Assembly: GCA_947084965.1 (NCBI GenBank)
Contig: CAMTUG010000001.1
Coordinates: forward strand, 409,301 to 473,300
Length of the DNA stretch: 64,000 nt
Direction: 5' to 3'
Origin: an uncultured Parcubacteria group bacterium
GTDB taxonomy: Bacteria > Patescibacteriota > Patescibacteriia > UBA9934 > CAMTUG01
The position numbers and the translations under genes are program-made. Below the pieces are notes generated by a model. That model had not been told where the DNA came from, did no database searches, and was given only the letters and a program-made list of their open reading frames with translations. Positions 5,379-63,886 of the stretch are shown one piece after another; the stretch's first letter is position 1; every line of letters starts with the position of its first letter.

Positions 5379-5606
5379 ATGACAGGTCAATCAGATTCCA
5401 AACAGTTTATCGAGCTCGAAGGGGAGGTCCTAGAACTCCTCCCTTCTGCGGCTATGAAGATCCAGCTCGACAACGGGCAGATCATTACTGGTCACCTCTC
5501 TGGCAAGATGCGTTTGCATCGCATTAAGGTGTTACCCGGGGATCATGTCAAAGTGGAGATGTCCCCGTACGATCTGACCAAAGGCCGCGTAACCTACCGC
5601 AAGTAA
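5379..5606 (+). CDS. infA: Translation initiation factor IF-1
   Basis: 75 aa with the S1-like IF-1 sequence ...[54 protein letters not shown]. Confidence 0.9.
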
Positions 5607-8232: not shown

Positions 8233-8586
8233 ATGACCATTGAACGCAAGACCATTGAAATCGACGCCACTGGCAAAGTGCCTGGTCGTTTGGCTTCCGA
8301 AATCGCTCGGTTGCTTCAGGGCAAGCACAAGGCCACCTACAGCCCGAACGTGGATATGGGCGACACCGTTATCGTCACCAACGTGGCTTTGATGAAAGTC
8401 AGTGCCAAGAAGGCGGAAGAGAAAATTTACAAACACCACAGCTTCCATCCAGGCGGACTCAAGAAGGTCAGCATGAAGGTGGTGATGGAAAAGCATCCAG
8501 AACGTGTGCTCCAGATGGCAGTCAAGAACATGTTGCCAAAGAATAAGTTGCAAACGGAGCGCATGAAGCGCCTGAAAGTTAGCTAA
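8233..8586 (+). CDS. rplM: 50S ribosomal protein L13
   Basis: In-frame ATG at 8233 inside track ORF 8056..8586. MTIERKTIEIDATGKVPGRLASEIARLLQGKHKATYSPNVDMGDTVIVTN matches L13. Confidence 0.85.
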   Translation: MTIERKTIEIDATGKVPGRLASEIARLLQGKHKATYSPNVDMGDTVIVTNVALMKVSAKKAEEKIYKHHSFHPGGLKKVSMKVVMEKHPERVLQMAVKNMLPKNKLQTERMKRLKVS

Positions 8587-8587
8587 T

Positions 8588-8995
8588 ATGGCAGAGGCAA
8601 ATTTCACCGGTAAATATACTGAAGCGGTCGGACGCCGCAAGCGCGCCATTGCTCGTGTTCGGATGTACCCAGGCAAAGGCCAGATCATCATCAACGAACG
8701 TGCGATGGAAGCATTTTTTGGTACCGCCAAGCTGCGCGAAACCGTTCGCCAGGCCCTGAAGACCGTCGGTCGTCCAGAATCCTTCGACATCTCGATCTAC
8801 GTCGTCGGTGGGGGAACCACGGGCCAGGCCGAAGCGATTCGCATGGGTATCGCCCGCTGTCTCTTGAAGGAGGACGCGGACATCAAGACCACGCTCAAGA
8901 AAGATGGACTGTTGACCCGCGACTCACGTCGCCGTGAACGCAAGAAGCCAGGGAAGCTGTCAGCACGTCGTTCGCCACAGTGGTCGAAACGTTAA
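8588..8995 (+). CDS. rpsI: 30S ribosomal protein S9
   Basis: ...GKGQIIINERAMEAFFG...YVVGGGTTGQAEAIRMGIARCLL... with the basic C-terminal tail ...RRSPQWSKR. Confidence 0.9.
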   Translation: MAEANFTGKYTEAVGRRKRAIARVRMYPGKGQIIINERAMEAFFGTAKLRETVRQALKTVGRPESFDISIYVVGGGTTGQAEAIRMGIARCLLKEDADIKTTLKKDGLLTRDSRRRERKKPGKLSARRSPQWSKR

Positions 8996-9007
8996 GCATC
9001 GATTACA

Positions 9008-10498
9008 ATGGGAGAGCTCGAAAGGGCTCTCCTTTCGGTTATGTCCACCATTGCCAAGAACACCATGCTCCTGACGCTCGCGTCGGTCGGCCAAAAGGCG
9101 ATCGCCTTTGTTTATTTTACGCTGATCGCCAACGCAATCGGCAAGGAAGCGACAGGCGATTACTTCCTCGCGCTTTCAATTACCACGATCTTTTCCGTTG
9201 TTGCCGACTGGGGTTTGACTCCGGTCTTGATCCGCGAAATCGCCAAACGACCAGGTGAAGCAGGGAAGATCCTGCGTTCAATCATGGCGCTCAAGATCCC
9301 GTTGATTCTGCTCGGTGCGGCTGGATCGATCGGTGCAGCGATGTTACTCGGTTACTCTGTCTCCGTCGTACAACTCGTTGCGGTCGCCAGTTTAGTTATG
9401 GCCGCGGATGCGATCTCGTTAACCTGTTTTGGTGTTCTGCGCGGCTTGCACAATCTGCGCTACGAATCGCTTGGAATCTTTGTTGGTCAGTCCGTCACCA
9501 CGCTCATCGGTCTTTTCTTCCTTTTTACAAATCCGTCGCTGACTCTTCTCATTATCGCTCTCCTTGCCGGAAGCACCTGGAACGCCATCTACTCCGCATC
9601 ACGTGTTGGTAAACACATTGGAGTTAAAGCACTCGTCCCATCGTTCGCTGGAGCAGAAGCAAAAAAGTGGCTCAAGCTCTCCGTGGCTTTTGTTCTCGCT
9701 GGCGCCTTTGTCAAAGTCTACTCGTACGTCGATTCGCTGATTCTGCATTCGATTCTCGGTTCCGGTGCCGTTGGGGCCTATTCCGTCGCTTATAAAATCA
9801 CCTACGCCTTTCAATTCCTCCCGATGGCATTCGTTGGTGCCTTGTACCCGCTCATGTCCACCCTTTGGGGGGAGGGGAAGAAGGCGGAGCTCGCTAAGCT
9901 CTTCGGCGACGCCATGTGGTACGTGATGCTCCTCGCCGCCCCAATCGTGTTTGGGATCTGGAGCATTGCCGATAAATTGATCCCTGCTTTTTATCCAAAC
10001 GGTTACGAAGAGTCCGTTCTTCCGCTACAGATCCTCGTTTTTGCCCTCCTCCTGCTCTTCGCCGATTTTCCGATCGGATCGCTTTTGAACGCTGCGGGCA
10101 AACAAGGGGTAAAAACAGCGATCATGGGTGGAACAATGGTCATCAATGCCGTTGCTAACATTATTTTGATCCCGCGCATTGGTCTCGAGGGGGCAGCCAT
10201 TTCGGCGGTCATCGGCGACACCTTCCTCCTGTTTGCCGGCTTGGCCATGGTTCCTCGCCTTATTGACACTTCGATGACGGGACTACTGGGCCGTATCGGT
10301 CCTATTCTCGCTAGCGGACTCCTGATGGCCGGAAGCGTGATTCTCCTCAAGCCATACCTCCATTTTGTGTTGTTGATTGGCGTTGGTGCTATCGTGTACA
10401 CGACCGTGCTCATTGCAACCAAAGCCTTAACGATTGAACACCTGCGCACGGCGTATAGAACGATGCGCGGCGGTGCTCCGGCATCTGAACCTGTATGA
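9008..10498 (+). CDS. Polysaccharide biosynthesis flippase, Wzx-like (MOP/PST family)
   Basis: 496-aa multi-TM protein. Its N-terminus NTMLLTLASVGQKAIAFVYFTLIANAIGKEATGDYFLALSITTIFSVVADWGL is typical of PST-family O-unit flippases. Confidence 0.65.
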   Translation: MGELERALLSVMSTIAKNTMLLTLASVGQKAIAFVYFTLIANAIGKEATGDYFLALSITTIFSVVADWGLTPVLIREIAKRPGEAGKILRSIMALKIPLILLGAAGSIGAAMLLGYSVSVVQLVAVASLVMAADAISLTCFGVLRGLHNLRYESLGIFVGQSVTTLIGLFFLFTNPSLTLLIIALLAGSTWNAIYSASRVGKHIGVKALVPSFAGAEAKKWLKLSVAFVLAGAFVKVYSYVDSLILHSILGSGAVGAYSVAYKITYAFQFLPMAFVGALYPLMSTLWGEGKKAELAKLFGDAMWYVMLLAAPIVFGIWSIADKLIPAFYPNGYEESVLPLQILVFALLLLFADFPIGSLLNAAGKQGVKTAIMGGTMVINAVANIILIPRIGLEGAAISAVIGDTFLLFAGLAMVPRLIDTSMTGLLGRIGPILASGLLMAGSVILLKPYLHFVLLIGVGAIVYTTVLIATKALTIEHLRTAYRTMRGGAPASEPV

Positions 10499-11538
10499 AG
10501 AATCTCGTTCTCTTCACCATTGATTATCCGCCATCGCGCGGCGGGGTCGCGCGGTATCTCTCATCGCTCGTTGCGCATTTCGGTGATCGCGTAAAGGTGA
10601 TCGCGCCGCCAGAGTATCAGTTGTTGTCTAAGATTCTCTGGCCGAAGTGGCTGCGCGCTGTGTACTTGATGCGCACAAAAACGAATCGCGACGATACGAT
10701 TTTGACAAGCCATTTGCTTCCGCTCGGACTCGCCGCCCGATTGTCTGGCCGACCGTATGTGGTGATGATGCACGGAATGGACTTTGCCTTAGCTCGAAGA
10801 AATTCCTGGAAGCGAGCGCTCACAAAGTGGATTTTGAAGAGAGCGAAGGTTGTCGTAACAAACACCGAAGCACTGGCTCGAGAGGTGAGAGGATTTGTGA
10901 AAGTGCAAGAGCTCGTCGTTGTTCATCCCTGCTTATCTGAAGAACTGTTGCGCGTTGGAGCCACACTGGATCGTCCACCAAAGTACGACGCGATTAATCT
11001 TCTAACGGTTGCGCGTTTGGTGCCTCGTAAGGGCCACAGCGTTGTCCTCGATGCCTTAGCAACGATTCGCGATCAAGGGTTTCCGGTGCCCCTCCGTTAC
11101 TACATCGTTGGTGACGGTCCACGCTATCGTGAACTGATGGAGCAGGTCAAAGCGCTCAAACTTCAAAATCAGGTGATCTTTAGCCGCAACGCCTCTGATG
11201 AACAGTTACTCGAGTATTACAAAAACGCCGACATCTTTGTGATGCCCACCGAGCACATGGGCCGCGATATCGAAGGGTTTGGAACGGTTTACATCGAAGC
11301 GGCGGCGTTTGGGGTGCCTTCCATCGCCTCGGAGCTTCCGGGCGTCGATGAGGCTGTCTTGCATGAGGAAACGGGGATCCTTGTGCCGTCCAACTCGGTC
11401 ACCGATCTGGCTGTGGCGATTCAACGCCTAGCCACAGATGCCGAATTGCGATCACGCCTCGGTGGAAATGCGCAGGCCCGCGCCCAGGCAGAGTTTCATT
11501 GCGATACCCAATTCGCCAAGCTCGACCACTTGCTATGA
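10495..11538 (+). CDS. Glycosyltransferase family 4 (GT-B)
   Basis: C-terminal EGFGTVYIEAAAFGVPSIASELPGVDEAVLHEETGILV is the E-x7-E retaining GT4 motif. The start overlaps the flippase stop by 4 nt. Confidence 0.75.
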   Translation: MKNLVLFTIDYPPSRGGVARYLSSLVAHFGDRVKVIAPPEYQLLSKILWPKWLRAVYLMRTKTNRDDTILTSHLLPLGLAARLSGRPYVVMMHGMDFALARRNSWKRALTKWILKRAKVVVTNTEALAREVRGFVKVQELVVVHPCLSEELLRVGATLDRPPKYDAINLLTVARLVPRKGHSVVLDALATIRDQGFPVPLRYYIVGDGPRYRELMEQVKALKLQNQVIFSRNASDEQLLEYYKNADIFVMPTEHMGRDIEGFGTVYIEAAAFGVPSIASELPGVDEAVLHEETGILVPSNSVTDLAVAIQRLATDAELRSRLGGNAQARAQAEFHCDTQFAKLDHLL

Positions 11539-12233
11539 TCTCCGTGATTATTCCAACCTACCAGCACGCTTCAACGCTTTCGCGTTGTCTTGAAAGTGTG
11601 TTTAAGCAGACGTTTAAAGACGTGGAAGTGATTGTGGTCGATGACGGATCGACTGACGGAACAGAGGAGGTTATAAAGCCGTACCTGGATCGCATTCAGT
11701 ACATCAAACAGGCCAATCAAGGTGCACCAGCGGCGCGCAATCGAGGATTTGATGCCTCCAAGGGCGAGGAAGTGATCTTTTGCGATGCGGATATTGTCAT
11801 GCGCGCCAATATGCTTGAGGTGTTGCACAGAACGCTTACAAACAATCCTGAGACGGCCTACGCCTACTCCGCGTTCCGCTTTGGCTGGAAAGGATTCACT
11901 TCGTATCCATTTTCTGCTGAACGTCTGCGTCAGATGAATTTTATTCATACGAGTGCACTGATTCGCCGTGCTGACTTTCCACGGTTCGATCAATCATTGC
12001 GGCGCTTTCAGGACTGGGACTTATGGCTGACAATCCTCAAACAGGGGAAGGGTGGGGTACACGTACCGCTTGAGCTCTTCCGCGTGATCGATGAGCGTGG
12101 TCGGGCCGGGATCAGCCAGTGGCGGCCGTCCCTTTGGCACAGAATCCCCTGGCAGAAGTTTGGTTGGAAACCGAAGTCCGTGAAAAAATATGATGATGCG
12201 AAGCGGGTGATTGCAGAAAAGCACGGGCTCTAA
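11535..12233 (+). CDS. Glycosyltransferase family 2
   Basis: MISVIIPTYQHASTLSRCLESVFKQTFKDVEVIVVDDGSTDGTEEV... and ...IFCDADIVM give the GT2 DxD motifs. ATG at 11535 overlaps the GT4 stop (ATGA). Confidence 0.75.
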   Translation: MISVIIPTYQHASTLSRCLESVFKQTFKDVEVIVVDDGSTDGTEEVIKPYLDRIQYIKQANQGAPAARNRGFDASKGEEVIFCDADIVMRANMLEVLHRTLTNNPETAYAYSAFRFGWKGFTSYPFSAERLRQMNFIHTSALIRRADFPRFDQSLRRFQDWDLWLTILKQGKGGVHVPLELFRVIDERGRAGISQWRPSLWHRIPWQKFGWKPKSVKKYDDAKRVIAEKHGL

Positions 12234-12251
12234 AATATTTTAGAATAGCGC

Positions 12252-12280
12252 GAACCCACCAGGAGTGTACTGGTGGGTTC
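12252..12280 (-). terminator. Intrinsic terminator hairpin shared by gene A (minus) and the GT2 gene (plus)
   Basis: GAACCCACCAG-gagtgta-CTGGTGGGTTC is an 11-bp perfect stem. It is flanked by TAAAATATTTTAGAATA on the left and a U-rich run on the minus transcript. It is paralogous to the hairpin at 49543-49569. Confidence 0.5.
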
Positions 12281-12307
12281 ATCGTGTGAGGGTCGTCGGA
12301 GTGCCGA

Positions 12308-13009
12308 CTACCTCGGGGGCGGCGGGGGTGGGGGGACCGCCACGACCTTGAGCGAGGCGGTGACGACCGGGTCCTTCGGCGTGAGCGTCAGGAGGCCGGT
12401 CATCGGGTCGCCGCGCTTGGTCTTCGGCTCGTAGAGGTCGACGCCGAGCAGGGTGAAGCCGACCTCGGTTCCGACCAGCGCCGTGGGACGGACGGAGCAG
12501 ACGAGGTCCACCCGGACCTCGCTGCCGGTCGGCGCCTTCTCGGGCGTCGGCCAGCGCAGTCCCATGCCGCCGGCGGTGTTGGGGAGGTAGCCGATCGACT
12601 TGTCGTCGCGGCCGGGGTACACCACCACGTGGCACAGCTCGAGGGTCTGCTGGGCCAGGGACTCGACCGGGGGCGCACCGGGTGGGAGCTCGGCGTTGAA
12701 GGGATCGACGATCCACTTCGCCCCGGAGCCGTCGCGGACCCACACCGCCATCTTGACATGGGGCACCGTGAAGACCTCGAACTGGTCCGCGGTGATGATC
12801 CACGTCCCGACGACGACGTTCTCGGCTCCGGGCCGGGCCTCCGCCGGCTTGTTCTCCGGCTCCTCCAGCTTGTAGGTGATGGGGACGTTGTCTTCGGCCC
12901 GGTCGTGCCAGTTGTCGCGCGCCATGTGCTTGGCGTGCCACTTGTGGAACCAGGGGCCAGCTTCTGCCGTCGGGGTGACGGCGACCATCAGGACGAGAGA
13001 CAGAATCAT
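12308..13009 (-). CDS. High-GC secreted protein of unknown function with a C-terminal poly-proline tail
   Basis: 233 aa with signal peptide MILSLVLMVAVTPTAEA and no recognisable catalytic motif. It ends ...VVAVPPPPPPPR. Third codon positions are strongly G/C. A GGAGG RBS sits 7 nt upstream of the ATG. Confidence 0.55.
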   Translation of the reverse strand: MILSLVLMVAVTPTAEAGPWFHKWHAKHMARDNWHDRAEDNVPITYKLEEPENKPAEARPGAENVVVGTWIITADQFEVFTVPHVKMAVWVRDGSGAKWIVDPFNAELPPGAPPVESLAQQTLELCHVVVYPGRDDKSIGYLPNTAGGMGLRWPTPEKAPTGSEVRVDLVCSVRPTALVGTEVGFTLLGVDLYEPKTKRGDPMTGLLTLTPKDPVVTASLKVVAVPPPPPPPR

Positions 13010-13128
13010 CGGTTCCTCCGATCTGGGTGAAGGCAGGCCTAAGGGCCCTGCAAGGGACGATCACAGCGCCGCTGTCGGCGTGGAATCTATGCCCAAAAGG
13101 CGCACATTCCATGTCGACAGGACCGTAA

Positions 13129-13157
13129 AAAGTAGCAGAAATTGGCCAAATTGTCAA
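13129..13157 (-). promoter_or_regulatory. Sigma70-like promoter of island A gene (TTGACA-17-TACTTT on the minus strand)
   Basis: The minus strand reads TTGACAatttggccaatttctgcTACTTTttac, followed by a leader of about 120 nt. It is paralogous to the island B plus-strand promoter (shared TCTGCTAyTTTTAC). Confidence 0.4.
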
Positions 13158-13200
13158 TGCCCATAGCTAAATTTAGCCAAATTTGATACATTTCTGGCGT

Positions 13201-41947: not shown

Positions 41948-42592
41948 ATGAGCTACAGCACCTTGTTGAGCGGAACGCACCGGCTCCTCGATGCCCTGCA
42001 GGCGCACGACCCCGCGACGCGAGAGCACAGCGAGCGAACGGGTGTCCTCGCCGCGGCCCTGGCAGCCGAGCTCAGACTCTCCCTGCGCGACCAGGCGATC
42101 CTGCGCCTCGGCGGAGCCTTGCACGATGTCGGCAAGCGCTCTGTTCCACGGGAGATCCTGACTGGCGACATGCGCTTCGTTCGCACCGATCCCCTGTTCA
42201 TCGAGCACATCATCCCCCACCCGACCGCCGGGGCGTACCTGTGCAGCCTCGAACGGATCGATGATGAAGTGATTCAAGTGATCGTCGAGCACCATGAACG
42301 ACTGGACGGTCTCGGCTACCCCTTCCGGATGAAGGCAGGTCAGATCAACTGGCGGTCGATGTTCGTCTCGATCGCCGACATGTTCGACGCCATGACCGAC
42401 ACAACCCGCATCTACCGACGGCCGAAGACCGGCGATGAAGCGATCACTGTCCTGCGGGATGCCGTCGGCAACGGCGAGATCCCCGAGCATCCCGTGCGCG
42501 CCCTTCTCGCCATTCACGAACGCGGCGAAATCGCTATCCTCCACGAACGCGCCGAGCCGCTCGAAGAGATCATTCGGTACCTCTCCACCTAA
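41948..42592 (+). CDS. HD-GYP domain protein (putative c-di-GMP phosphodiesterase), high-GC island C
   Basis: ...HSERTGVLAAALAAEL...LGGALHDVGK...HHERLDGLGYP are the HD and GYP motifs. 214 aa. GC3-rich at about 64% GC versus ~50% in neighbours. GGAGG RBS. Confidence 0.7.
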   Translation: MSYSTLLSGTHRLLDALQAHDPATREHSERTGVLAAALAAELRLSLRDQAILRLGGALHDVGKRSVPREILTGDMRFVRTDPLFIEHIIPHPTAGAYLCSLERIDDEVIQVIVEHHERLDGLGYPFRMKAGQINWRSMFVSIADMFDAMTDTTRIYRRPKTGDEAITVLRDAVGNGEIPEHPVRALLAIHERGEIAILHERAEPLEEIIRYLST

Positions 42593-42607
42593 ACACCTCT
42601 CAAGACA

Positions 42608-42640
42608 AGCGCCGCCGGGGGAACTCCCCGAGCGGCGTCG
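42608..42640. terminator. Hairpin between convergent HD-GYP and atpC
   Basis: CGCCGGGGGaactCCCCGAGCGGCG followed by TCATTTC. Confidence 0.4.
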
Positions 42641-42646
42641 TCATTT

Positions 42647-43099
42647 CTAGATTTCACGATCGGGCTGAGCCGTCGTTGTTCGACCTCGTGCCCGCTTGCT
42701 AGCCACTTTAAACCGAGCCAGTTCACGCTCCATCGCTGCTGCGGCATGAGCAAAGGCCTCGGCATCCTCGTGACGCTTTTCCGTGAGGATGACCCGTGCC
42801 CGTTCACGCGCCTCTTCGATCGTTTTCAGATCAAGTTCTTCGGCACGCTCCGCCGTATCTGCCAAAATCACCACTTCGTTCCCTGGGCGCACTTCGACGA
42901 ACCCGGTCGAAACGGCTAACAACGTCTCTTCTTTCCCTGTGCGAGTCAGCACTTCACCAGCGCGCAACGTCGAAACGAGCGGGATATGATCTTTCATGAT
43001 CGTGATCTCGCCCGCGGTGGTTGGCAACGTCACTGAATCAACGGTGTCTTCGTAGACCACGCGCTCAGGAGTGACAATTTTGAGATTGATTTTTGGCAT
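42647..43099 (-). CDS. atpC: ATP synthase epsilon subunit
   Basis: MPKINLKIVTPERVVYEDTVDSVTLPTTAGEITIMKDHIPLVSTLRAGEV... Confidence 0.85.
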   Translation of the reverse strand: MPKINLKIVTPERVVYEDTVDSVTLPTTAGEITIMKDHIPLVSTLRAGEVLTRTGKEETLLAVSTGFVEVRPGNEVVILADTAERAEELDLKTIEEARERARVILTEKRHEDAEAFAHAAAAMERELARFKVASKRARGRTTTAQPDREI

Positions 43100-43107
43100 A
43101 GGAAATT

Positions 43108-44541
<1,434 letters not shown>

Positions 44542-48068: not shown

Positions 48069-48293
<225 letters not shown>

Positions 48294-48302
48294 TTAGATA
48301 TT

Positions 48303-48360
48303 AGTAAGTAGTAAGTGGTAATTGGAGACAGCTGTCTCTACTTACCGCTTACCAATTACC
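48303..48360. repeat. Hairpin repeat, GTAAGYGG/GAGACAC family (R4)
   Basis: AGTAAGTAGTAAGTGGTAATTGGAGACAGCTGTCTCTACTTACCGCTTACCAATTACC in the atpB-atpE intergenic region. Confidence 0.6.
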
Positions 48361-48364
48361 AATT

Positions 48365-49195
48365 TCAATGCGCGTGCGCCATCTTTGCTTCATGATTCCC
48401 CTCCTCGTGCTCCTCTCCGTGTGCTTCGGTAGCAACGGTCAGATATGCGAGCGTGAGCATCGCAAAGACCGTCGCTTGAATCACCGCGACGAGAAGTTCG
48501 AGGAAGATGAATGGCAGAGGGAGGAAGTAGGCGAAGATTCCGAGAACGATCGTAATCAACACTTCGCCGGCAAAGATATTTCCAAAGAGACGCAAGGAGA
48601 GCGAAAGGACTTTGGCAATTTCTGAAACAATTTCGATCAACCCAACACCAAATTCAATGATCGCCACAATGACCGCCATTGGCCCTTTCGGAATCGCTTT
48701 GAAGATTCCGCGGATGTTGACGAATTTGGAAAGATGGGCGATCGGGCCAAGCTTTACTAATCCAAAGAGGTGCGAAGCGAGAACGGCCACCGCGGCGATC
48801 GCAAGCGTCATGTTCAGGTCGCTCGTTGCGGGACGCAGGAGCGGGATAAGGGCCATCTCACCATGGATGACTTCGCGGACCCCAATCGATCCCGTGCCCG
48901 GCATCTGGCCAAGCAAATTGGAGACGAGCACGAATAAGAAGATCGTTCCAACGATCGGCAAGAACTTTTTGGCGCGCTCGCGATCTTCCGTCACCTTTTG
49001 TGATTCCGTGAGCATGAATTCCACGATCGCTTCGAAGATATTGTGAATCCCTTTTGGCACGAGCCCCACGCGACGGCGGGCAATCGCCGCGACGACAACA
49101 AAAAAGATCACAGCGATCCAGGCGTTCACCATGGAGTTTGTGATCGGCAATGCGGCGATATGAGCGATTGGTTCAGCGGCGAGGGATACGGACAT
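48365..49195 (-). CDS. atpB: ATP synthase a subunit
   Basis: ...LSLSLRLFGNIFAGEVL... carries the conserved Arg helix; polytopic. Confidence 0.9.
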   Translation of the reverse strand: MSVSLAAEPIAHIAALPITNSMVNAWIAVIFFVVVAAIARRRVGLVPKGIHNIFEAIVEFMLTESQKVTEDRERAKKFLPIVGTIFLFVLVSNLLGQMPGTGSIGVREVIHGEMALIPLLRPATSDLNMTLAIAAVAVLASHLFGLVKLGPIAHLSKFVNIRGIFKAIPKGPMAVIVAIIEFGVGLIEIVSEIAKVLSLSLRLFGNIFAGEVLITIVLGIFAYFLPLPFIFLELLVAVIQATVFAMLTLAYLTVATEAHGEEHEEGNHEAKMAHAH

Positions 49196-49200
49196 ACATT

Positions 49201-49458
49201 CTATTTTCCCTTTTCCTTGCCTCCGCTTTCAAAGATCCTCTGATATTCCTTCCCATATTCCTTTGCAATTCTGGCCACGTGGATAGCGGTCAGGACAAAG
49301 GCGAGCACAAGAAGGCCGATCAGGAACCAGGGAGAGGTGTTGAAACGCGTGTCCAGCCACTTTCCGGCTAAGGCCGCCAAAACGGCCGGGACAGCGATCG
49401 CAACCCCGAAATTCCCAAGGATTTTGAAGGCGAAGAGGTACAAGGAGCGGTCGTTCAT
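49201..49458 (-). CDS. AtpI/AtpZ-like small membrane protein preceding atpB
   Basis: MNDRSLYLFAFKILGNFGVAIAVPAVLAALAGKWLDTRF...; two TM helices. The track start at 49497 is a TTG that coincides with the operon -35. Confidence 0.4.
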   Translation of the reverse strand: MNDRSLYLFAFKILGNFGVAIAVPAVLAALAGKWLDTRFNTSPWFLIGLLVLAFVLTAIHVARIAKEYGKEYQRIFESGGKEKGK

Positions 49459-49468
49459 AAGCGCGGAT

Positions 49469-49497
49469 AGTATAGCCGAATGGCTGTAGTAGGTCAA
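49469..49497 (-). promoter_or_regulatory. Putative ATP synthase operon promoter (TTGACC-17-TATACT, minus strand)
   Basis: The minus strand reads TTGACCtactacagccattcggcTATACT, about 10 nt before the ATG at 49458. Confidence 0.45.
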
Positions 49498-49542
49498 GGC
49501 AATTTGTCATTTTTGAAAGTCATTTATCCCCATAAATCGCGA

Positions 49543-49569
49543 AACCCACCTGAAGTGCTCAGGTGGGCT
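49543..49569 (-). terminator. Terminator hairpin of island B minus-strand gene, paralogous to 12252-12280
   Basis: AACCCACCTGA-agtgc-TCAGGTGGGCT. It has compensatory base changes relative to the island A hairpin (AG/CT versus TGA/TCA). The flanking sequence shares CGCGAA...TCGTG.G.G...GGAGTGCC..CTAC with island A. Confidence 0.5.
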
Positions 49570-49594
49570 CGACGTGGGTGAAGCAGGGAGTGCC

Positions 49595-50479
49595 CTACTT
49601 CGTCTGGGTGGTGGGGATCGGTTGCATCTCTGGGCCGGAGACGCCGCCGAACTTGGCGAAGCCGCAGCAGCCGCAGAACAGGACGAGGAGGAACCCGACG
49701 ATGATGATCAGCGGCAAGTTGCCCGCGATCGCGCCGCTGATGGTCGGCTGGGTCGGGGTGCCGGTGGCGCTCGTCGCCTTCCCTGCTTCCTCGCGACCCT
49801 TCTTGGCGGCGTCCTTCCGCTTCTTGCGCTCCTCCGCGCGTTCGTCCCGCGCGGCCTGCTGATCGGCCGTCGGGTTGGCCCAACGGTCCCGGGCCCGAGC
49901 GACGGCGGCGTCCTGGCGAGCACGCGCCGCGGCAGCTTCCGCCGCACGCGCGACCTCGGCTTCGTGGGCCGCGGCGGCCGCCTTGGCTTCGGCGGCCTTG
50001 CGATCGTCCTCGGCCTTCTTCGCGGCGGCGCCAGGGTCGACGGGCTTCACGGTCTCGGCCGGCGTCTCGGGCGCGCCAGCCTTCTTCGCGGCAAGGGCAG
50101 CGGCTGCTGCGGCTCCGGCTGCGCCAGCGGCGACCTCCTCGTCGAGGTCCGGGATGCCGTCCCCGTCTTCTTCGACGACCGCCTCCTCGGGCTCCTCCTC
50201 TTCCTCGCTCGGCTTCTCGGCCTTGACGCCGGTCAGCTTCTCGAGGATCGGGTGGACGACCTCGGCCATGGCGCCGATCACGCTGCCCAGCGTGCCGGCC
50301 TCCTTGGCGTCGAGGAGCTCGGTGAGGAGCTTCTGCGAGGGCTCGTCGAGCACGTCGGCCATTTCGTCGGCCTTGACGGCGTCCGCGGTCCAGGCGGCGC
50401 TGAGGTCCGACCACTCCTGGTCGGTGAGCTCCTCGCCATCCAGACACTTCTTCAACAGGGCCTTGATCTTCGGGTCCAT
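49595..50479 (-). CDS. High-GC tail-anchored membrane protein of unknown function (294 aa)
   Basis: ATG at 50479 (MDPKIKALLKKCLDGEELTDQEW...) with a GGAG RBS. It has an acidic linker (EEEEEPEE), an Ala-rich helix (AEAKAAAAAHEAEVARAAEAAAARARQDAAVARARD), a single C-terminal TM (LPLIIIVGFLLVLFCGCCGF) and a short tail. The track start at 50635 is upstream of the promoter. Confidence 0.55.
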   Translation of the reverse strand: MDPKIKALLKKCLDGEELTDQEWSDLSAAWTADAVKADEMADVLDEPSQKLLTELLDAKEAGTLGSVIGAMAEVVHPILEKLTGVKAEKPSEEEEEPEEAVVEEDGDGIPDLDEEVAAGAAGAAAAAALAAKKAGAPETPAETVKPVDPGAAAKKAEDDRKAAEAKAAAAAHEAEVARAAEAAAARARQDAAVARARDRWANPTADQQAARDERAEERKKRKDAAKKGREEAGKATSATGTPTQPTISGAIAGNLPLIIIVGFLLVLFCGCCGFAKFGGVSGPEMQPIPTTQTK

Positions 50480-50564
50480 TCGGTACTCCGTGGGTGGGGG
50501 TAGATGTCCTGACTGCGGGATCCTTGACGCCTGAAGCGTCGGAACGGGAGAAATCCAGCCGCCA

Positions 50565-50593
50565 AATATAGCATAAAAAACCGATTTTGTCAA
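50565..50593 (-). promoter_or_regulatory. Sigma70-like promoter for island B minus gene (TTGACA-17-TATATT)
   Basis: The minus strand reads TTGACAaaatcggttttttatgcTATATT; the leader of about 85 nt contains the hairpin GACGCttcagGCGTC. Confidence 0.45.
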
Positions 50594-50657
50594 TCCAGCC
50601 CAACAATAAGGGCAAAAAGCGAAAAAGAGGCACAAATAAAGCCAAAATCTTATCTAG

Positions 50658-50693
50658 GCAGACTTGACAAAATCAAAAAAGTCTGCTATTTTA
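50658..50693 (+). promoter_or_regulatory. Sigma70-like promoter for island B plus gene (TTGACA-16-TATTTT), with -35 inside an 8-bp inverted repeat GCAGACTT-N13-AAGTCTGC
   Basis: gGCAGACTTGACAAAATCAAAAAAGTCTGCTATTTTAcaagg; leader of about 120 nt with a GGAG RBS. Confidence 0.5.
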
Positions 50694-50812
50694 CAAGGCT
50701 GTGCAGGACCCTAAAAGAGAGGGCTGGCAGTGGTTTTCCCCGACAGCGGGGCTGATCGAGAGAGAAAGGACACAACACCCAAACGGCGGCCAACCCGCCA
50801 ACGGAGCACACC

Positions 50813-52408
50813 ATGGCGACCCTCGCCGAACAGCTCGCCGCGCAAGCGGCCAACGCCAGCAAGAAGAACGACAAGGGCAACAAGAAGGGCGGTCTCGCGG
50901 CGCAGGCCGCGGCCGGCAACAAGCCCGACGCCAAGGCGCAGCAGGAGGCCCGGGCGGCGGCGTTCGCCGACGCGCAGAACGACCTGGCCGCCGACGCGGT
51001 GATGAAGATCGGGGAGCTCGCCCAGGGCAACCGCCGCGCCCAGGCGGACCTGATCTCCCGCATCGTCCGCAACGGAGAGAAGCTCGCCATCTTCGAGGTC
51101 AGCCCCCGGCAGGAGGAGGGACGGCACGGCGAGGGCCTCAAGTGGGTCGGCGACACCACGATCGACGGCGTCGGGGAGACGGTCGGCTTCACCAGCCACA
51201 TCATCCTCTTCGACCTGGTCGCCGGGAAGAAGGTGTGGTGCTGCCTCGTGCAGGACAAGAAGCGCAAGGACAGCTACAGCGCCTTCCCCCTCGGCCTCTG
51301 CGAGGTGTCCCTCATCAACAACTGGAACGGGAACCGTTCGAAGGAGGACCCGACCATCACCGTCATCACCGGCTCGATCCGCGACGCCCACCGCAGCGTC
51401 AAGCTGACGGTCCGCGAGATCGTCGAGCTGCGTGGGCGGGGCGGGGGTCAGCACCTCGCCTGGCTCAAGGGCTTCCGCCTGGTGAAGCACGAGCGGTGCC
51501 AGCCCTTCGCGCTCAACGTCAAGTCCGTGTTCAAGATCGAGCTGGGCGAGCGCGGCGCCACCCTCCGGTTCGTCTCCACGGCCGAGGCCTTCCAGGGCTT
51601 CGATCACAAGGCGATCGCGATCGGCGGGGCCTCGAGCAAGCCGGTCGATCCGCTCGCGGCGGTCGGCAAGGTGACGATCGAGGAGGTCAACCCGGACATC
51701 GTCCACGGGCTGATCAACAAGCTGAAGGGAGAGAAGAAGACGGACGAGCACCCCACCGTGAAGGCGATGAAGGCGGCCGGGCGCAAGGTGTCGGACGACA
51801 TGGCCGGGCGCGAGGGCCCCATCAACTCGGTCCTGGAGAAGGAGGTCAAGCCGGCGCTCCTCGAGGCGCTGGACGTGGAGATCGAGAAGCGCGAGAAGCT
51901 CCTCGGCGACCTCCCCACCCTGCGCGTGTTCCTGGGGCTCACCACCTCGGACGACATGCGCAGCACCCACCGCAACATCAGCAACCGGCGCGACGCGCCG
52001 AAGGAGGGCAAGGACTCGCCCGCCGAGTTCATCGCCGAGAAGACCAAGATCCCGTTCACCTGGTCCCTCTTCGGCCGCTACTTCCGGGCCGGACTCCTCG
52101 CCAAGATCGCCCAGGCGGAGGAGAGCCACGATCTGGCCGTCAAGATCGTGGTGCTCGAGAAGGAGGTCGAGGTCAACGCCGAGGACATGCTCGGGTGGCC
52201 CGACTGGACCAAGGAAGGGATCGCCGCCCGACTCGAGGCGATCGAGAAGGGCGACGTGCGCGGGGCCGTCTGGGTGGTGAACCAGGCGCTCCGGCAGCAC
52301 AAGGTGGAGATCGACCTCGGCAAGGAGGGCCACCTCGACATCGTGAAGGCTGCGGTGAAGACCGTCGCCGACGCGGTGATCGCCAAGATCACGCCCGCCG
52401 CCAGCTAG
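50813..52408 (+). CDS. High-GC 531-aa soluble protein of unknown function
   Basis: ATG at 50813. The N-terminal ~60 aa are A/Q/K-rich low complexity (MATLAEQLAAQAANASKKNDKGNKKGGLAAQAAAGNKPDAKAQQEARAAAF...). No P-loop, HTH or catalytic motif is recognised by eye. Strong GC3 bias. Confidence 0.6.
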   Translation: MATLAEQLAAQAANASKKNDKGNKKGGLAAQAAAGNKPDAKAQQEARAAAFADAQNDLAADAVMKIGELAQGNRRAQADLISRIVRNGEKLAIFEVSPRQEEGRHGEGLKWVGDTTIDGVGETVGFTSHIILFDLVAGKKVWCCLVQDKKRKDSYSAFPLGLCEVSLINNWNGNRSKEDPTITVITGSIRDAHRSVKLTVREIVELRGRGGGQHLAWLKGFRLVKHERCQPFALNVKSVFKIELGERGATLRFVSTAEAFQGFDHKAIAIGGASSKPVDPLAAVGKVTIEEVNPDIVHGLINKLKGEKKTDEHPTVKAMKAAGRKVSDDMAGREGPINSVLEKEVKPALLEALDVEIEKREKLLGDLPTLRVFLGLTTSDDMRSTHRNISNRRDAPKEGKDSPAEFIAEKTKIPFTWSLFGRYFRAGLLAKIAQAEESHDLAVKIVVLEKEVEVNAEDMLGWPDWTKEGIAARLEAIEKGDVRGAVWVVNQALRQHKVEIDLGKEGHLDIVKAAVKTVADAVIAKITPAAS

Positions 52409-52488
52409 AGGAAGCTGGACTTCAAGAGAAGGGCTAGAGGTAGCAGATGAATCAGTCTACCTCGCCCAACTCATCCTCACTCACGAGC

Positions 52489-52517
52489 GACACCCACGGA
52501 AAACTTCCGTGGGTGTC
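52489..52517 (+). terminator. Terminator hairpin of island B plus gene
   Basis: GACACCCACGGAA-aac-TTCCGTGGGTGTC is a 13-bp stem in the ACCCAC family. A second hairpin, TAGACGGGGCgcagtgGCCCCGTCTA (52526-52551), abuts the tatD stop. Confidence 0.5.
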
Positions 52518-52551
52518 ATCGCGTTTAGACGGGGCGCAGTGGCCCCGTCTA

Positions 52552-53394
52552 TTAAATTCCAAAGAGCTTTTCGGCGTTTGCCGTCGTAACACGATCAACT
52601 TCTTCAACCGTGATCCCTTTAAGCACCGCGACTTTGGCCGCTACAAATTCGACCATCCACGGTTCATTGCGCTCCCCGCGATGCGGTTCAGGAGTTAAAT
52701 ACGGTGCGTCGGTTTCGAGCATCATCATTTCGAGCGGACAATCACGCACTACTTGTTGCAGCGCAGAAATTGCCCCTTCCGATTTACGTGGCGGAAAGGT
52801 GATGATCCCGGTGAAGCTGGTGAGGAATCCGATTGCGTGATAGGCGCGAGCTTCTTCAATCGTTCCCGTAAAACAATGTACAACTCCGCGACGTTTCATC
52901 CGTCCCGCTTCGATGTATTCTTTCAAAATAGCCACCTGATCGGCGTGCGCGTCACGACAGTGAATGACCACAGGCAGATTCAGCTCATCCGCCAGATCAA
53001 ACTGCTTGCGCACTTCCACCTTCTGCTTTTCAATCAACGTCGCACGATCCACCTCCGGCGGGATGCGATAGTAATCCAGCCCACACTCCCCGATCGCCAC
53101 CACCTTTGGATGCTTGGCAAGATCACGGTAATACTCCATGTCAAAACTTTCACAGCGCGTCTTGATCTCTTCCAAATCATCTTGAAAATGCTGTTCGCAC
53201 GTATGATTCGGATGTAGACCGATCGTGGTGTAGACGCCGTCGTACTGTTCCGCAACTCCAATCCCCTTCTTACTTGTTGTTGACTGCGTCCCAACGGTCA
53301 CCATGCGCACCCCTTTTTCAAGAGTACGCGTGATCACGGCGTCCATGTCATCTTTGTACGCCTGAAAGTGGACGTGGCAATGCGTGTCGATCAT
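52552..53394 (-). CDS. tatD: TatD family hydrolase (DNase)
   Basis: MIDTHCHVHFQAY... plus the TatD His/Glu/Asp motifs. Confidence 0.85.
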   Translation of the reverse strand: MIDTHCHVHFQAYKDDMDAVITRTLEKGVRMVTVGTQSTTSKKGIGVAEQYDGVYTTIGLHPNHTCEQHFQDDLEEIKTRCESFDMEYYRDLAKHPKVVAIGECGLDYYRIPPEVDRATLIEKQKVEVRKQFDLADELNLPVVIHCRDAHADQVAILKEYIEAGRMKRRGVVHCFTGTIEEARAYHAIGFLTSFTGIITFPPRKSEGAISALQQVVRDCPLEMMMLETDAPYLTPEPHRGERNEPWMVEFVAAKVAVLKGITVEEVDRVTTANAEKLFGI

Positions 53395-53903
53395 ACGGTT
53401 GGAATTCTGGCACGTAACGTTTCCGGGAGGAGACCAACAAAGATCGTGAAGAGACCCATCAGATAGGTCGCTACTTTTGAACTATCGATCACTTCAACGA
53501 CCGTGGCTTCAGGAAACAGAAGTTTGGCGATGTACACGACCGAAGCGACGACCACAAGTCCTTCAAGGAATCCAAGGAATCCGCCAAGCAGTCGATTAGC
53601 CGTTTTCAAAAACGGAATGATTGAGATGATGTTAAACGCTTTTTCTACGACCCAGAAAATAAGACCGACGAGGCGCGAAACGATCAGAAAGACGAGGATG
53701 AACGAAAGGATCGTTGGCAAGACTTCGGCGCCTGTTACTTCGGAAAGCCACGCCCCGAACGGCACGGCGGCGCGTGAGGCGACGAAAATTCCAGCGACCG
53801 TGCCGACCAACGCCCCGAGCGTCTGGATAAATCCAAGAAACGCACCAACAAGACCGAAGGAAAAGACGATCAGAATCAAGATGACGTCGAGGAGAGAGAA
53901 CAT
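53391..53903 (-). CDS. cvpA: CvpA family membrane protein
   Basis: MFSLLDVILILIVFSFGLVGAFLGFIQTLGALVGTVAGIFVA... is a CvpA-like N-terminus; 4 TM. Confidence 0.6.
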   Translation of the reverse strand: MFSLLDVILILIVFSFGLVGAFLGFIQTLGALVGTVAGIFVASRAAVPFGAWLSEVTGAEVLPTILSFILVFLIVSRLVGLIFWVVEKAFNIISIIPFLKTANRLLGGFLGFLEGLVVVASVVYIAKLLFPEATVVEVIDSSKVATYLMGLFTIFVGLLPETLRARIPTV

Positions 53904-53939
53904 AGGAAAAGGAAAGAGGTGAGAGGTAGAGAAGAGGTG

Positions 53940-55439
53940 CTAGGGGCGACGGGGGAAGAGAGGGTCTGATTTTTGCAGGACGTGTCCAGGTTCAAGCCCG
54001 CCCCACACCCAAGCCGATTCCGCAGACTGCGTGAATTCTTTTGGCGTTTCTAATCCGAGTTGGGCGAGCATTTTTTCGGCCGTCTCTGGCATGAATGGCA
54101 ACAGCATCCACGCGATGTGACGCAACGTTTCGAGCAGAACGTACATTGTCTGATCGATCATCTTCTGCTCCCCTAACTTGGCGAGCTTCCATGGCGCCTG
54201 CTGATCAATGAACTGATTGCTTTCGCGTACTAGTTTCCACGTTACTTCGAGGGCGTCGAGGAAGCGCACCTCTTCCATTGCTAACTGATACGCTGGCCAA
54301 GCCCCGGCCAAAAATCCGTCGGCGCGTTCTGGAACTTTTCCATCGCAAAACTTTTCGGCCATCGTAATCACCCGACTCAACAAGTTTCCAAGCTCGCTCG
54401 CCAGATCGCTGTCATAGCGTTGCTCCATGCGTGCCAGGGCAAAATCCCCATCTTCGCCGTACTTGATTTCGCGCAGCAAGAAATAACGCAGCACGTCATT
54501 GCCAAAGTTTTGTGCCAATTCGATCGGATCGATGGCGTTGCCGAGCGACTTAGAAATTTTATCGCCATTGATCGTAAAAAACCCGTTCGCAAAGACCCGC
54601 GTCGGCAGCGGCAGTCCGGCTGACAAAAGCATCGCCGGCCACAGAGCGCAGTGGAACTTGATGATATCCTTTCCAACCAAATGCACATCTGCCGGCCAAT
54701 ACTTGGCGAACATCGCCTCATCGCTCCCGTAGCCGACAGCAGTCAGATAGTTGATCAGCGCGTCGAACCAAACGTAGATACGCTGGGAGTCATCGCCAGG
54801 CACAGGAATACCGCACTTCACCGTTTCGCGCGAAATACTGACGTCGGTCATGAACTTATCGATGTACGAACGAATTTCATTGCGACGCGAAGTTGGCTGC
54901 ACGAACTCTGGATGCTCATCAATTAACTTCAGCAACGCCTCACGATACTTCGTCAGACGGAAAAAGTAATTCTTTTCAGAAAGTCGATCTGGCTCTCGTT
55001 TATGCAACGGACATTTGCCGTCGACCAAATCATCTTCTGTTTTATACGACTCACACCCGACACAGTACAGACCTTCGTACTGCCCTTCGTAAATGTCGCC
55101 ATTTTCAAACGACGCTTTCCAAAACTTCTCAACCGCCTTCACGTGTCGCTCCTCCGTCGTACGGATAAAAGCGTTGTTGGTGATCCCAAGCGAGTCCCAT
55201 GTTGATTGCCAGGTGGCACTCATCTGGTCCAGATACTTGGTGAGATCCGCCTCCCCCGCCTTCTTTGCCGCCTCAACGTTCTTCTGCGAATTTTCGTCTG
55301 TGCCAGTCACGAAAAAAACATCATGCCCGAGCATGCGATGATAACGCGCCAACACATCCGCCGCGATCGTCGTATAGGCATGCCCAACGTGCGGTTTGTC
55401 GTTGACGTAGTAGATGGGGGTAGTGATGTAGAACTTCAT
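53940..55439 (-). CDS. metG: Methionine--tRNA ligase (minimal form)
   Basis: MKFYITTPIYYVNDKPHVGHAYTTIAAD... (HVGH) and ...KISKSLGN (KMSKS); CxxC...CxxC knuckle. ATG at 55439; the track ORF is extended to 55508. Confidence 0.9.
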   Translation of the reverse strand: MKFYITTPIYYVNDKPHVGHAYTTIAADVLARYHRMLGHDVFFVTGTDENSQKNVEAAKKAGEADLTKYLDQMSATWQSTWDSLGITNNAFIRTTEERHVKAVEKFWKASFENGDIYEGQYEGLYCVGCESYKTEDDLVDGKCPLHKREPDRLSEKNYFFRLTKYREALLKLIDEHPEFVQPTSRRNEIRSYIDKFMTDVSISRETVKCGIPVPGDDSQRIYVWFDALINYLTAVGYGSDEAMFAKYWPADVHLVGKDIIKFHCALWPAMLLSAGLPLPTRVFANGFFTINGDKISKSLGNAIDPIELAQNFGNDVLRYFLLREIKYGEDGDFALARMEQRYDSDLASELGNLLSRVITMAEKFCDGKVPERADGFLAGAWPAYQLAMEEVRFLDALEVTWKLVRESNQFIDQQAPWKLAKLGEQKMIDQTMYVLLETLRHIAWMLLPFMPETAEKMLAQLGLETPKEFTQSAESAWVWGGLEPGHVLQKSDPLFPRRP

Positions 55440-58250: not shown

Positions 58251-58320
58251 CAGTAAGCAGTAATTGGAAAGTGGAGACGCTCAATGAGTGTCTCCACTTA
58301 CTACTTACCAATTACCGCTT
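58251..58320. repeat. Hairpin repeat, GTAAGYGG/GAGACAC family (R6); bidirectional terminator between convergent prx and pepA
   Basis: CAGTAAGCAGTAATTGGAAAGTGGAGACGCTCaatGAGTGTCTCCACTTACTACTTACCAATTACCGC. Confidence 0.6.
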
Positions 58321-63690: not shown

Positions 63691-63719
63691 TTGACAAAAC
63701 AAGATTTTTATGATATCAT
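63691..63719 (+). promoter_or_regulatory. Sigma70-like promoter (TTGACA-17-TATCAT) for the small Cys-rich ORF
   Basis: TTGACAaaacaagatttttatgaTATCAT lies about 28 nt before the ATG at 63748. Confidence 0.4.
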
Positions 63720-63747: not shown

Positions 63748-63843
63748 ATGGAAACATGCACGACGTGCGGAATGGAAATGGAGGGCGACACCTGTCCAGG
63801 ATGTGGAAAAGCGGTCGCTGAGTGTACCTGCGAACACGTTTAA
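63748..63843 (+). CDS. Small Cys-rich (zinc-ribbon-like) protein, 31 aa
   Basis: METCTTCGMEMEGDTCPGCGKAVAECTCEHV has six Cys in CxxC/CxGC spacing. It has its own promoter and is followed by a perfect intrinsic terminator. Confidence 0.4.
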   Translation: METCTTCGMEMEGDTCPGCGKAVAECTCEHV

Positions 63844-63850
63844 ATAACAC

Positions 63851-63886
63851 AAAACCGCTCCGAGCTTACTCGGAGCGGTTTTGATT
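63851..63886. terminator. Bidirectional intrinsic terminator
   Basis: AAAACCGCTCCGAGcttaCTCGGAGCGGTTTT. Confidence 0.65.

Follow-up and report, generated by a model that had tools for sequence, protein, structure and literature searches.

The 64,000-nucleotide window analysed here, a stretch of contig CAMTUG010000001.1 from an uncultured Parcubacteria group bacterium, contains two islands of aberrant base composition, A and B, whose three genes share a regulatory architecture that is the subject of this report. Island A (12231..13199) comprises the 969 bp between the last sense codon of a GT2 glycosyltransferase gene and the rluB start (TATGATG), and has a G+C content (GC) of 0.66 against a background of ~0.52. 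It carries gene A, a minus-strand coding sequence (CDS; 12308..13009) preceded by a GGAGG ribosome-binding site 5 nt ahead of its start codon (13015..13019, minus strand), which encodes an orphan protein of 233 aa with a signal-peptide-like segment at its N-terminus and PPPPPPPR at its C-terminus. Island B lies in the junction between tatD and the atp cluster and holds a divergent pair, the 294-aa B-minus (49595..50479, minus strand) and the 531-aa B-plus (50813..52408, plus strand). The B-minus protein begins with an N-terminal domain, continues through an acidic linker into a helical region rich in Ala, Arg and Glu, and ends in a C-terminal transmembrane helix. The source genome is an Uhrbacteria-like patescibacterium of ~52% GC, and our module counts and motif scans cover the 64-kb window of it. 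Loci of relatives, designated here by L numbers, include 12 GTDB loci and 10 metagenome loci obtained by TatD scans for the tatD|atp slot, and the slot loci with informative records are metagenome-assembled genomes (MAGs) of Patescibacteria or Candidatus Uhrbacteria.

The three island genes are set apart by their composition at third codon positions (GC3). Native genes in the window are very uniform (GC3 0.48-0.67 over ~58 open reading frames, ORFs), and the outliers are gene A, B-minus and B-plus at 0.89-0.97, while GC at second positions (GC2) stays ordinary. Over the first, second and third positions the island genes read ~0.67/0.44/0.95, with 0.68/0.47/0.94 for gene A, 0.66/0.41/0.97 for B-plus and a GC3 of 0.89 for B-minus, a combination that marks true coding sequence under strong GC pressure rather than random GC-rich DNA. 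The same positional pattern picks out the true frame in island DNA, where long ORFs stand open in several frames on both strands (49524-50645, 50701-52437, 50711-52333 and others) because AT-rich stop codons are scarce in high-GC DNA. Expression-linked codon bias was considered as the source of a GC3 of 0.97 and ruled out, since the genes for S13, S11, S4, L17 and RpoA in the window reach merely 0.58-0.66. Composition changes sharply at the island borders, with no GC rise in the TatD or atpI edges of island B, and by region GC amounts to 0.34-0.37 in the promoters, 0.53-0.65 in the leaders and 3' untranslated regions (UTRs) and 0.46 in native intergenic DNA. As predicted from sequence, the GC increase starts at the transcription start and is bounded by the transcription unit. 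A fourth, milder composition outlier in the window, an HD-domain (PF13487) gene on the plus strand (41948-42592; GC3 0.80), lies between a 1003-aa gene and the final gene of the atp cluster. No stringent consensus promoter precedes it, and a terminator of canonical appearance stands at ~42600-42650.

Each of the three island genes is headed by a TTGACAA-N13-TGCTA extended -10 promoter. The pattern TTGACA-N13-16-TGNTA has four matches in the window against 0.2 expected, a number reached in none of 100 shuffles; three of the four precede A, B-plus and B-minus, and the fourth is native. The gene A promoter (13130..13157, minus strand) combines TTGACA, a 17-nt spacer with terminal TGC and TACTTT in an extended -10 arrangement, and equals the L008 minus-type promoter at ~27 of 32 positions in a by-eye count in the alignment. 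The B-minus promoter TTGACAAAATCGGTTTTTTATGCTATATT (50565..50593, minus strand; 11/12 consensus positions plus TG) is identical at 26/27 positions in L007 and at 27/31 in L008, and stands back to back with the B-plus promoter TTGACAAAATCAAAAAAGTCTGCTATTTT (50664..50692, plus strand; 10/12 plus TG). These are predicted sigma-70 extended -10 promoters, with a TTGACA-like -35, a 16-18 nt spacer and TG one base upstream of TAnnnT. Our consensus promoter scan leaves gene A uncalled: its -35 is perfect and TGC is present, and its -10, TACTTT, is weak (3/6). In 317 kb of the window and its relatives, 9 of the 11 stringent consensus promoters precede island or slot genes, and every strong GC3 outlier carries one. 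The bases common to the predicted island promoters are mostly sigma-70 consensus (-35, 17-nt spacer, TG-extended -10), so that the promoters alone are no proof of homology. No match to the promoter pattern was found in viral contigs. The only native stringent extended -10 promoter in the window, TTGACAAAACAAGATTTTTATGATATCAT at 63691, precedes a 31-aa Cys-rich ORF (63749-63843, METCTTCGMEMEGDTCPGCGKAVAECTCEHV) with a textbook terminator at 63849-63884.

The leaders measure ~80-120 nt in the window and ~35-90 nt in L007 and L008, and end in a GGAG ribosome-binding site. The 15-mer CCGACAGCGGSGCTG has exactly two zero-mismatch matches in the window, in the leaders of A and B-plus, where the longer motif reads CCGACAGCGGCGCTGTGATCG, with the palindrome ACAGCGgCGCTGT inside, in gene A (13058..13078, minus strand) and CCGACAGCGGGGCTGATCG in B-plus (50740..50758, plus strand), placed 54 and 51 nt downstream of TGCTA, respectively. 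The 21-nt local alignment of the two leaders scores 26, against a mean of 15.4 and a maximum of 25 among dinucleotide shuffles (z 4.9; 0/1000). The leader folds are not more stable than shuffles. A riboswitch or other known leader RNA was dropped from consideration, as Rfam covariance models matched nothing in the window at the gathering threshold and nothing in either island at E<=1. Viral contigs contain four matches to the leader motif; the one inspected (L003), in high-GC sequence that resembles coding DNA, appears to be a chance match.

The strongest similarity between the islands lies behind the genes. The 3' flanks of A and B-minus are identical at 31 of 39 positions (z 8.3; 0/1000 shuffles). 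In both, a GGCACTCC motif follows the CDS, 2 nt past the stop codon in gene A (12298..12305, minus strand) and directly past it in B-minus (49587-49594, minus strand); the counterpart in L007-minus is GGGCACT. Beyond it, gene A has the hairpin GAACCCACCAG / CTGGTGGGTTC of 11-12 bp, followed by CGCGCTATTC (12250..12282, minus strand; fold -28.7 kcal/mol, z -5.2), and B-minus the module CACCCACGTCGA with the hairpin GAGCCCACCTGA / TCAGGTGGGTTTC and then GCGATTT (49537..49582, minus strand). The 3' module of B-plus (52478..52527, plus strand), composed of CACTCACGAGC, the hairpin GACACCCACGGAA / TTCCGTGGGTGTC and then ATCGCGTTTA, represents a third copy that has diverged further (z 2.8 with B-minus and 0.9 with A), in which the corresponding elements read CACTCACG..GACACCCACGG..CCGTGGGTGTC..CGCG. 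Three hairpins with an (A/G)CCCAC core are present in the window against 0.01 expected, exclusively at the ends of A, B-minus and B-plus, and none was found in the relatives' loci. Across the three flanks the stems are 11-13 bp long, with minimum free energies of -28.7 to -51 kcal/mol (z -3.7 to -5.7) and tails of TTCGCGCTATTC, TTTCGCGATTT and CATCGCGTTTA, and the hairpins may serve as terminators or mRNA stabilisers. The orthologous hairpins of L007, L008 and L024 do carry T-runs. Native gene ends carry another recurring hairpin, GTAAG..GGAGAC..GTCTCC..CTTAC with CCAATTACC-like flanks, at 43105-43170, 48311-48352 and 58265-58303 (in the atp operon region and downstream of an AhpC-like gene), a palindrome family distinct from the ACCCAC hairpins of the islands.

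These modules had been described in an earlier note on this DNA, whose sequences and coordinates proved correct, and our analysis narrows what it made of them. It had aligned the promoters of A and B-plus as homologous; both match, as does that of B-minus, which it had left unlisted, but the homology was overstated for what is largely consensus. The common leader it proposed holds for A and B-plus, whose 21-nt motif outscored 1000 shuffles, but does not extend to B-minus and is specific to this genome. The ~75-nt alignment it had drawn between the 3' flanks of A and B-minus is convincing over ~40-60 nt, and against shuffled controls, a comparison by which it could have been refuted, this flank and the leader each beat 1000 of 1000, whereas the other pairs are weak; by blastn-short alone, none of the flank, leader or promoter similarities is significant. 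Its covarying terminator reduces to a single fully compensatory pair between A and B-minus (A-U to U-A) together with wobble changes in RNAalifold, and B-plus adds about three more compensatory pairs only with the stems set in register by hand. The folding it had suggested for two terminators showed all three hairpins to be stable, but none has the T-run of a proper terminator.

Island A is an insertion. In L020, L021 and L022 the stop codon of the GT2 gene adjoins the start of rluB or overlaps it, whereas in the window 969 bp (12231-13199) part the two genes and the insert itself provides the GT2 stop codon; the uninterrupted junction in three syntenic relatives identifies the island as the added element. 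From its match to the L008 minus-type promoter and its B-minus-type 3' UTR, gene A looks like a derivative of the slot cassettes with a different CDS. A perfect 14-nt palindrome, CTAAAATATTTTAG, lies over the GT2 stop at the left edge of the island (12229-12244) and may contribute to a 3' structure that serves both directions. The upstream edge of island A matches the L011 slot over 17 nt, beside an IS5-like fragment there; with an expectation value (E) of 0.26, the match was taken as chance.

Island B, by comparison with relatives, occupies a slot of long standing position. The genes flanking the islands match the synteny of relatives, and a divergent gene pair is present in the tatD|atpI junction of the window, L007, L009 and L026; L008 and L010 have the same divergent layout with a contig end inside the second gene. 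In L007 the order is atp operon, atpI, a 399-aa gene (minus), a 553-aa gene (plus), tatD, cvpA and metG, with an island of 62-70% GC on a ~52% background. All six loci with this layout have back-to-back TTGACAAA...TGnTA promoters. Neighbouring proteins are 77-89% identical across the compared genomes (TatD 80-89%), and between L007 and the window TatD and AtpB reach 85% and 77%, whereas the island proteins reach just 31-35%. Slot content is highly variable across the clade: the L019 junction is essentially empty (~30 nt, 10861-10891), and L012, L013, L016 and L017 have short inserts of 0.7-1.1 kb with single small genes. The 546-aa protein of L008 shows no similarity to B-plus or to the L007 protein P0006, though TatD of L007 and L008 is 89% identical, and the slot proteins of L009 and L010 constitute a family of their own (34% identity; hhalign probability 0.8% against the B-plus family). 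Homology of the B-plus family with the slot proteins of L009/L010 or L008 was accordingly rejected at current sensitivity. The compositional anomaly is persistent, GC3 of the slot genes exceeding the native mean in 9/9 genomes that carry them, by +0.08 to +0.4. GC among the relatives ranges from 41% to 65%, the upper end being L009, whose whole locus has 65% GC and the same slot architecture (its AtpB and TatD share 73% and 64% identity with those of the window). The 3' ends of the L026 pair form inverted repeats of 76 nt at 84% identity (5401-5476 and 8445-8520), which enclose exactly the island, with the tatD stop on one side and the atp promoter on the other, and reach a few codons into both CDSs, a direct sign that 3' modules become duplicated or homogenised.

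The proteins encoded by the islands are orphans. Pfam, PHROGs, PDB sequence searches and phage tblastn gave no match for the A, B-minus or B-plus proteins, and among 5.8 billion clustered proteins A and B-plus retrieved only themselves. An exhaustive phmmer search of 1.84 billion representative proteins yielded a single relative of B-plus, P0006 (35% identity), which is located in the syntenic slot of L007. B-minus is homologous to the 399-aa protein of L007 over its N-terminal domain (31% identity), and a 364-aa protein of L026 has the same architecture. AlphaFold2 (AF2) models were too poor to use, with predicted local distance difference test (pLDDT) scores of 37 for B-plus from a two-sequence alignment and 45 for A from the single sequence, and Foldseek with the gene A model returned generic beta-sandwiches at template modelling (TM) scores below 0.3 and no fold match.

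We favour, at a probability of roughly one half for the joint reading, a family of autonomous expression cassettes that resemble morons and are restricted to a lineage of Uhrbacteria-like Patescibacteria, with regulatory modules that are duplicated or converted and CDSs that are exchangeable and persistently GC-rich. Each cassette would open with a sigma-70 promoter close to consensus, its -10 extended by TG (TTGACAAAAT-N10-TGCTAT), followed by a GC-rich leader with a terminal GGAG ribosome-binding site and an orphan CDS of extreme GC3 for a predicted secreted or membrane-anchored protein, and would close with a stable 3' hairpin, rich in GC and with a TT(T)CGCG tail, that probably ends and/or stabilises the mRNA; high expression of such units is predicted. 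Two cassettes would stand head to head in an old tatD|atp slot, where the promoter skeleton would be conserved across genomes as the CDSs diverge extremely fast or get swapped, and a third, A, would later have been inserted into the GT2|rluB junction. The modules would be alike through clade-typical strong signals held by purifying selection together with copying or gene conversion between cassettes, and the genome-specific ACCCAC core alongside a different native hairpin makes duplication or gene conversion a better fit than convergence. Exchange of CDSs between lineages is suggested by the unrelated slot proteins and may proceed through uptake of DNA and recombination, for which the conserved modules or the flanking genes would provide homology arms. 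Our data bear out the conclusion of the earlier note that the three high-GC genes make up a single coherent class, with a common regulatory architecture, and not three unrelated transfers; they bear out its duplicated or mobile cassette in the insertion of A and in the L026 repeats, but not for island B, which is not freely mobile and stays in the same slot in relatives.

Several observations weigh against this reading. No recombinase or transposase was found among the island neighbours and no target-site duplication at the edges of A, B or the L026 island; with no mobility gene, target-site duplication or donor identified, the evidence for exchange is indirect. The leader motif was found neither in the B-minus leader nor in the orthologous leaders of relatives; it is specific to the source genome and connects A with B-plus but leaves out the third gene. 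Our terminator scan calls none of the three island hairpins because a proper T-run (at least 5/8) does not follow the stem, and covariation is thin, at one or two pairs. The module counts, moreover, come from a single 64-kb window. In L009 native GC3 averages 0.81 with a maximum of 0.93, and the 0.97 of B-plus exceeds even that, which counts against a simple story of a high-GC relative as donor. Finally, the window, L007 and L008 are separated by core-gene distances of a roughly star-like pattern, and incongruence of the slot with phylogeny is therefore not proven.

The best-surviving alternative, which we regard as possible though on balance unlikely, holds that the genes are native, vertically inherited and very fast evolving, for example in surface or host interaction, that a local force keeps their GC high, and that nothing here is mobile. 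Candidates for the force are GC-biased gene conversion, acting at a hotspot of recombination, and selection for mRNA composition, and the modules would be alike only as clade-optimal signals. Synteny of the slot extends over at least six lineages, L007 has recognisable homologues of B-plus and B-minus, and a B-minus-like architecture recurs in L026, all as vertical descent would have it; GC3 raised in every slot-carrying genome whatever the background GC also fits a persistent force better than repeated transfers, and the confinement of the GC rise to the transcription unit points the same way. Such descent leaves unexplained, however, why island A is missing from three syntenic relatives, why L008, with a TatD 89% identical to that of L007, has an unrelated slot protein, and why the TatD and atpI edges show no GC rise; the genome-specific leader 21-mer and ACCCAC hairpins, for their part, need copying and not mere convergence.

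A more elaborate proposal, which we hold to be doubtful, combines elements of the favoured cassette family with such a force. Here the tatD|atp junction of a patescibacterial clade would be a dedicated expression slot with a conserved framework of back-to-back consensus promoters and hairpin ends, which may also act as homology arms when whole CDSs are swapped through DNA uptake and recombination. A process limited to the transcription unit, for instance biased conversion towards GC under incessant recombination, or selection acting on mRNA, would hold the cargo at extreme GC over evolutionary time, and cassette copies could seed new sites, as in the case of island A.

It is improbable that island B is, or descends from, a non-autonomous transposable element with terminal inverted repeats (TIRs) at its borders, the apparent terminators being its ends and island A a half-element. 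The repeats placed exactly around the L026 island are what this would predict, the ends of island B in the window show a weaker form of the same inverted arrangement (z 2.8), L019 offers an empty site, and a slot ORF of L011 (41% GC; 8875-9327, near a contig end) is a by-eye candidate for an IS5/InsH-like transposase N-terminal fragment. Against these stand the lack of a transposase in or near the islands and of a target-site duplication, the occupation of the same site in every genome, the dissimilar ends of L007 and L009, which show no TIRs, and the presence of a hairpin at one end only of island A.

Three independent recent transfers from unrelated high-GC donors, their signals alike by convergence or chance, are largely refuted. 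Atypical composition and sharp borders, the classical signs of horizontal gene transfer (HGT), are both present, promoter identity is mostly consensus and shared by one native gene, and blastn-short finds no significant flank similarity; the presence test, however, is mixed, with A absent from three relatives and the B slot occupied by GC-rich genes in others. No donor homologue emerged from 5.8-15 billion proteins, the sole relative of B-plus sits in the same slot of a related patescibacterium, and the slot architecture is conserved across genomes. The 3' module and the leader motif, moreover, are in the same register in both copies, and the hairpin cores all lie at the ends of island genes. 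An assembly chimera or contaminating high-GC DNA, which the abrupt composition shifts in a MAG might suggest, is refuted for island B and of negligible probability overall, given that run ERR3478686, in an independent Logan assembly, matches 48110-54777 of the window at 100% identity across both island B junctions, that GC-rich genes occupy the same slot in relatives from other samples, and that the junctions coincide with functional signals.

Specific literature on cassettes of this kind was not found, and known systems resemble the favoured cassette family in part. The morons of Hendrix and Juhala are reportedly extra genes of lambdoid prophages with their own promoter and terminator and atypical composition. 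Like them, the island cassettes are single-gene autonomous units with their own sigma-70 promoter and 3' hairpin, inserted into a co-linear backbone from which their base composition differs sharply; unlike them, they sit in a housekeeping chromosome (atp, tatD, metG, GT2, rluB) and not a prophage, their proteins match neither PHROGs nor phage genomes by tblastn, their compositional anomaly persists across diverged lineages, and their modules are common to several cassettes. In the vsp/vlp loci of Mycoplasma and in pilE/pilS-type systems, conserved expression flanks surround hypervariable surface-protein or antigen genes. The slot shares with these the conserved 5' and 3' flanks around very divergent CDSs, the fixed position and the secreted or membrane-anchored products, which here are predicted, but the window is without silent donor copies, an invertase or phase-variation repeats, and slot variation is between lineages, not within a genome. 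Integron cassettes are likewise exchangeable single ORFs, each with an imperfect palindromic 3' element, and are usually promoterless, whereas the island units own their promoters and are divergent rather than arrayed; no integrase-like gene was found among the island neighbours, and no attI/attC signature, the hairpins not having been scored with an attC model. In Neisseria and Pasteurellaceae, DNA-uptake sequences are paired in terminators, and repetitive extragenic palindromic (REP) elements are genome-specific repeated palindromes. The island hairpin core similarly recurs at several gene ends of one genome and is absent from relatives, but it has just three copies in the window, all on island genes.

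Patescibacteria have tiny genomes, depend on other cells and carry lineage-specific proteins that are mostly unexplained. Our comparison places a set of such orphans, predicted to be strongly promoted and secreted or membrane-anchored, in a conserved slot and a spin-off insertion, where turnover of the slot proteins far outpaces that of the core genome and their genes are GC-rich in every lineage examined. This pattern suggests a defined locus for host-interaction or surface diversification, and it offers a natural test case for a local base-composition anomaly that persists against genome-wide mutational pressure. The promoter skeleton and the slot position together provide signatures by which such genes may be found in other MAGs. 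If the tatD|atp junction is indeed a dedicated expression slot, it would represent a previously undescribed way for ultra-small symbionts to diversify their secreted and membrane proteins.

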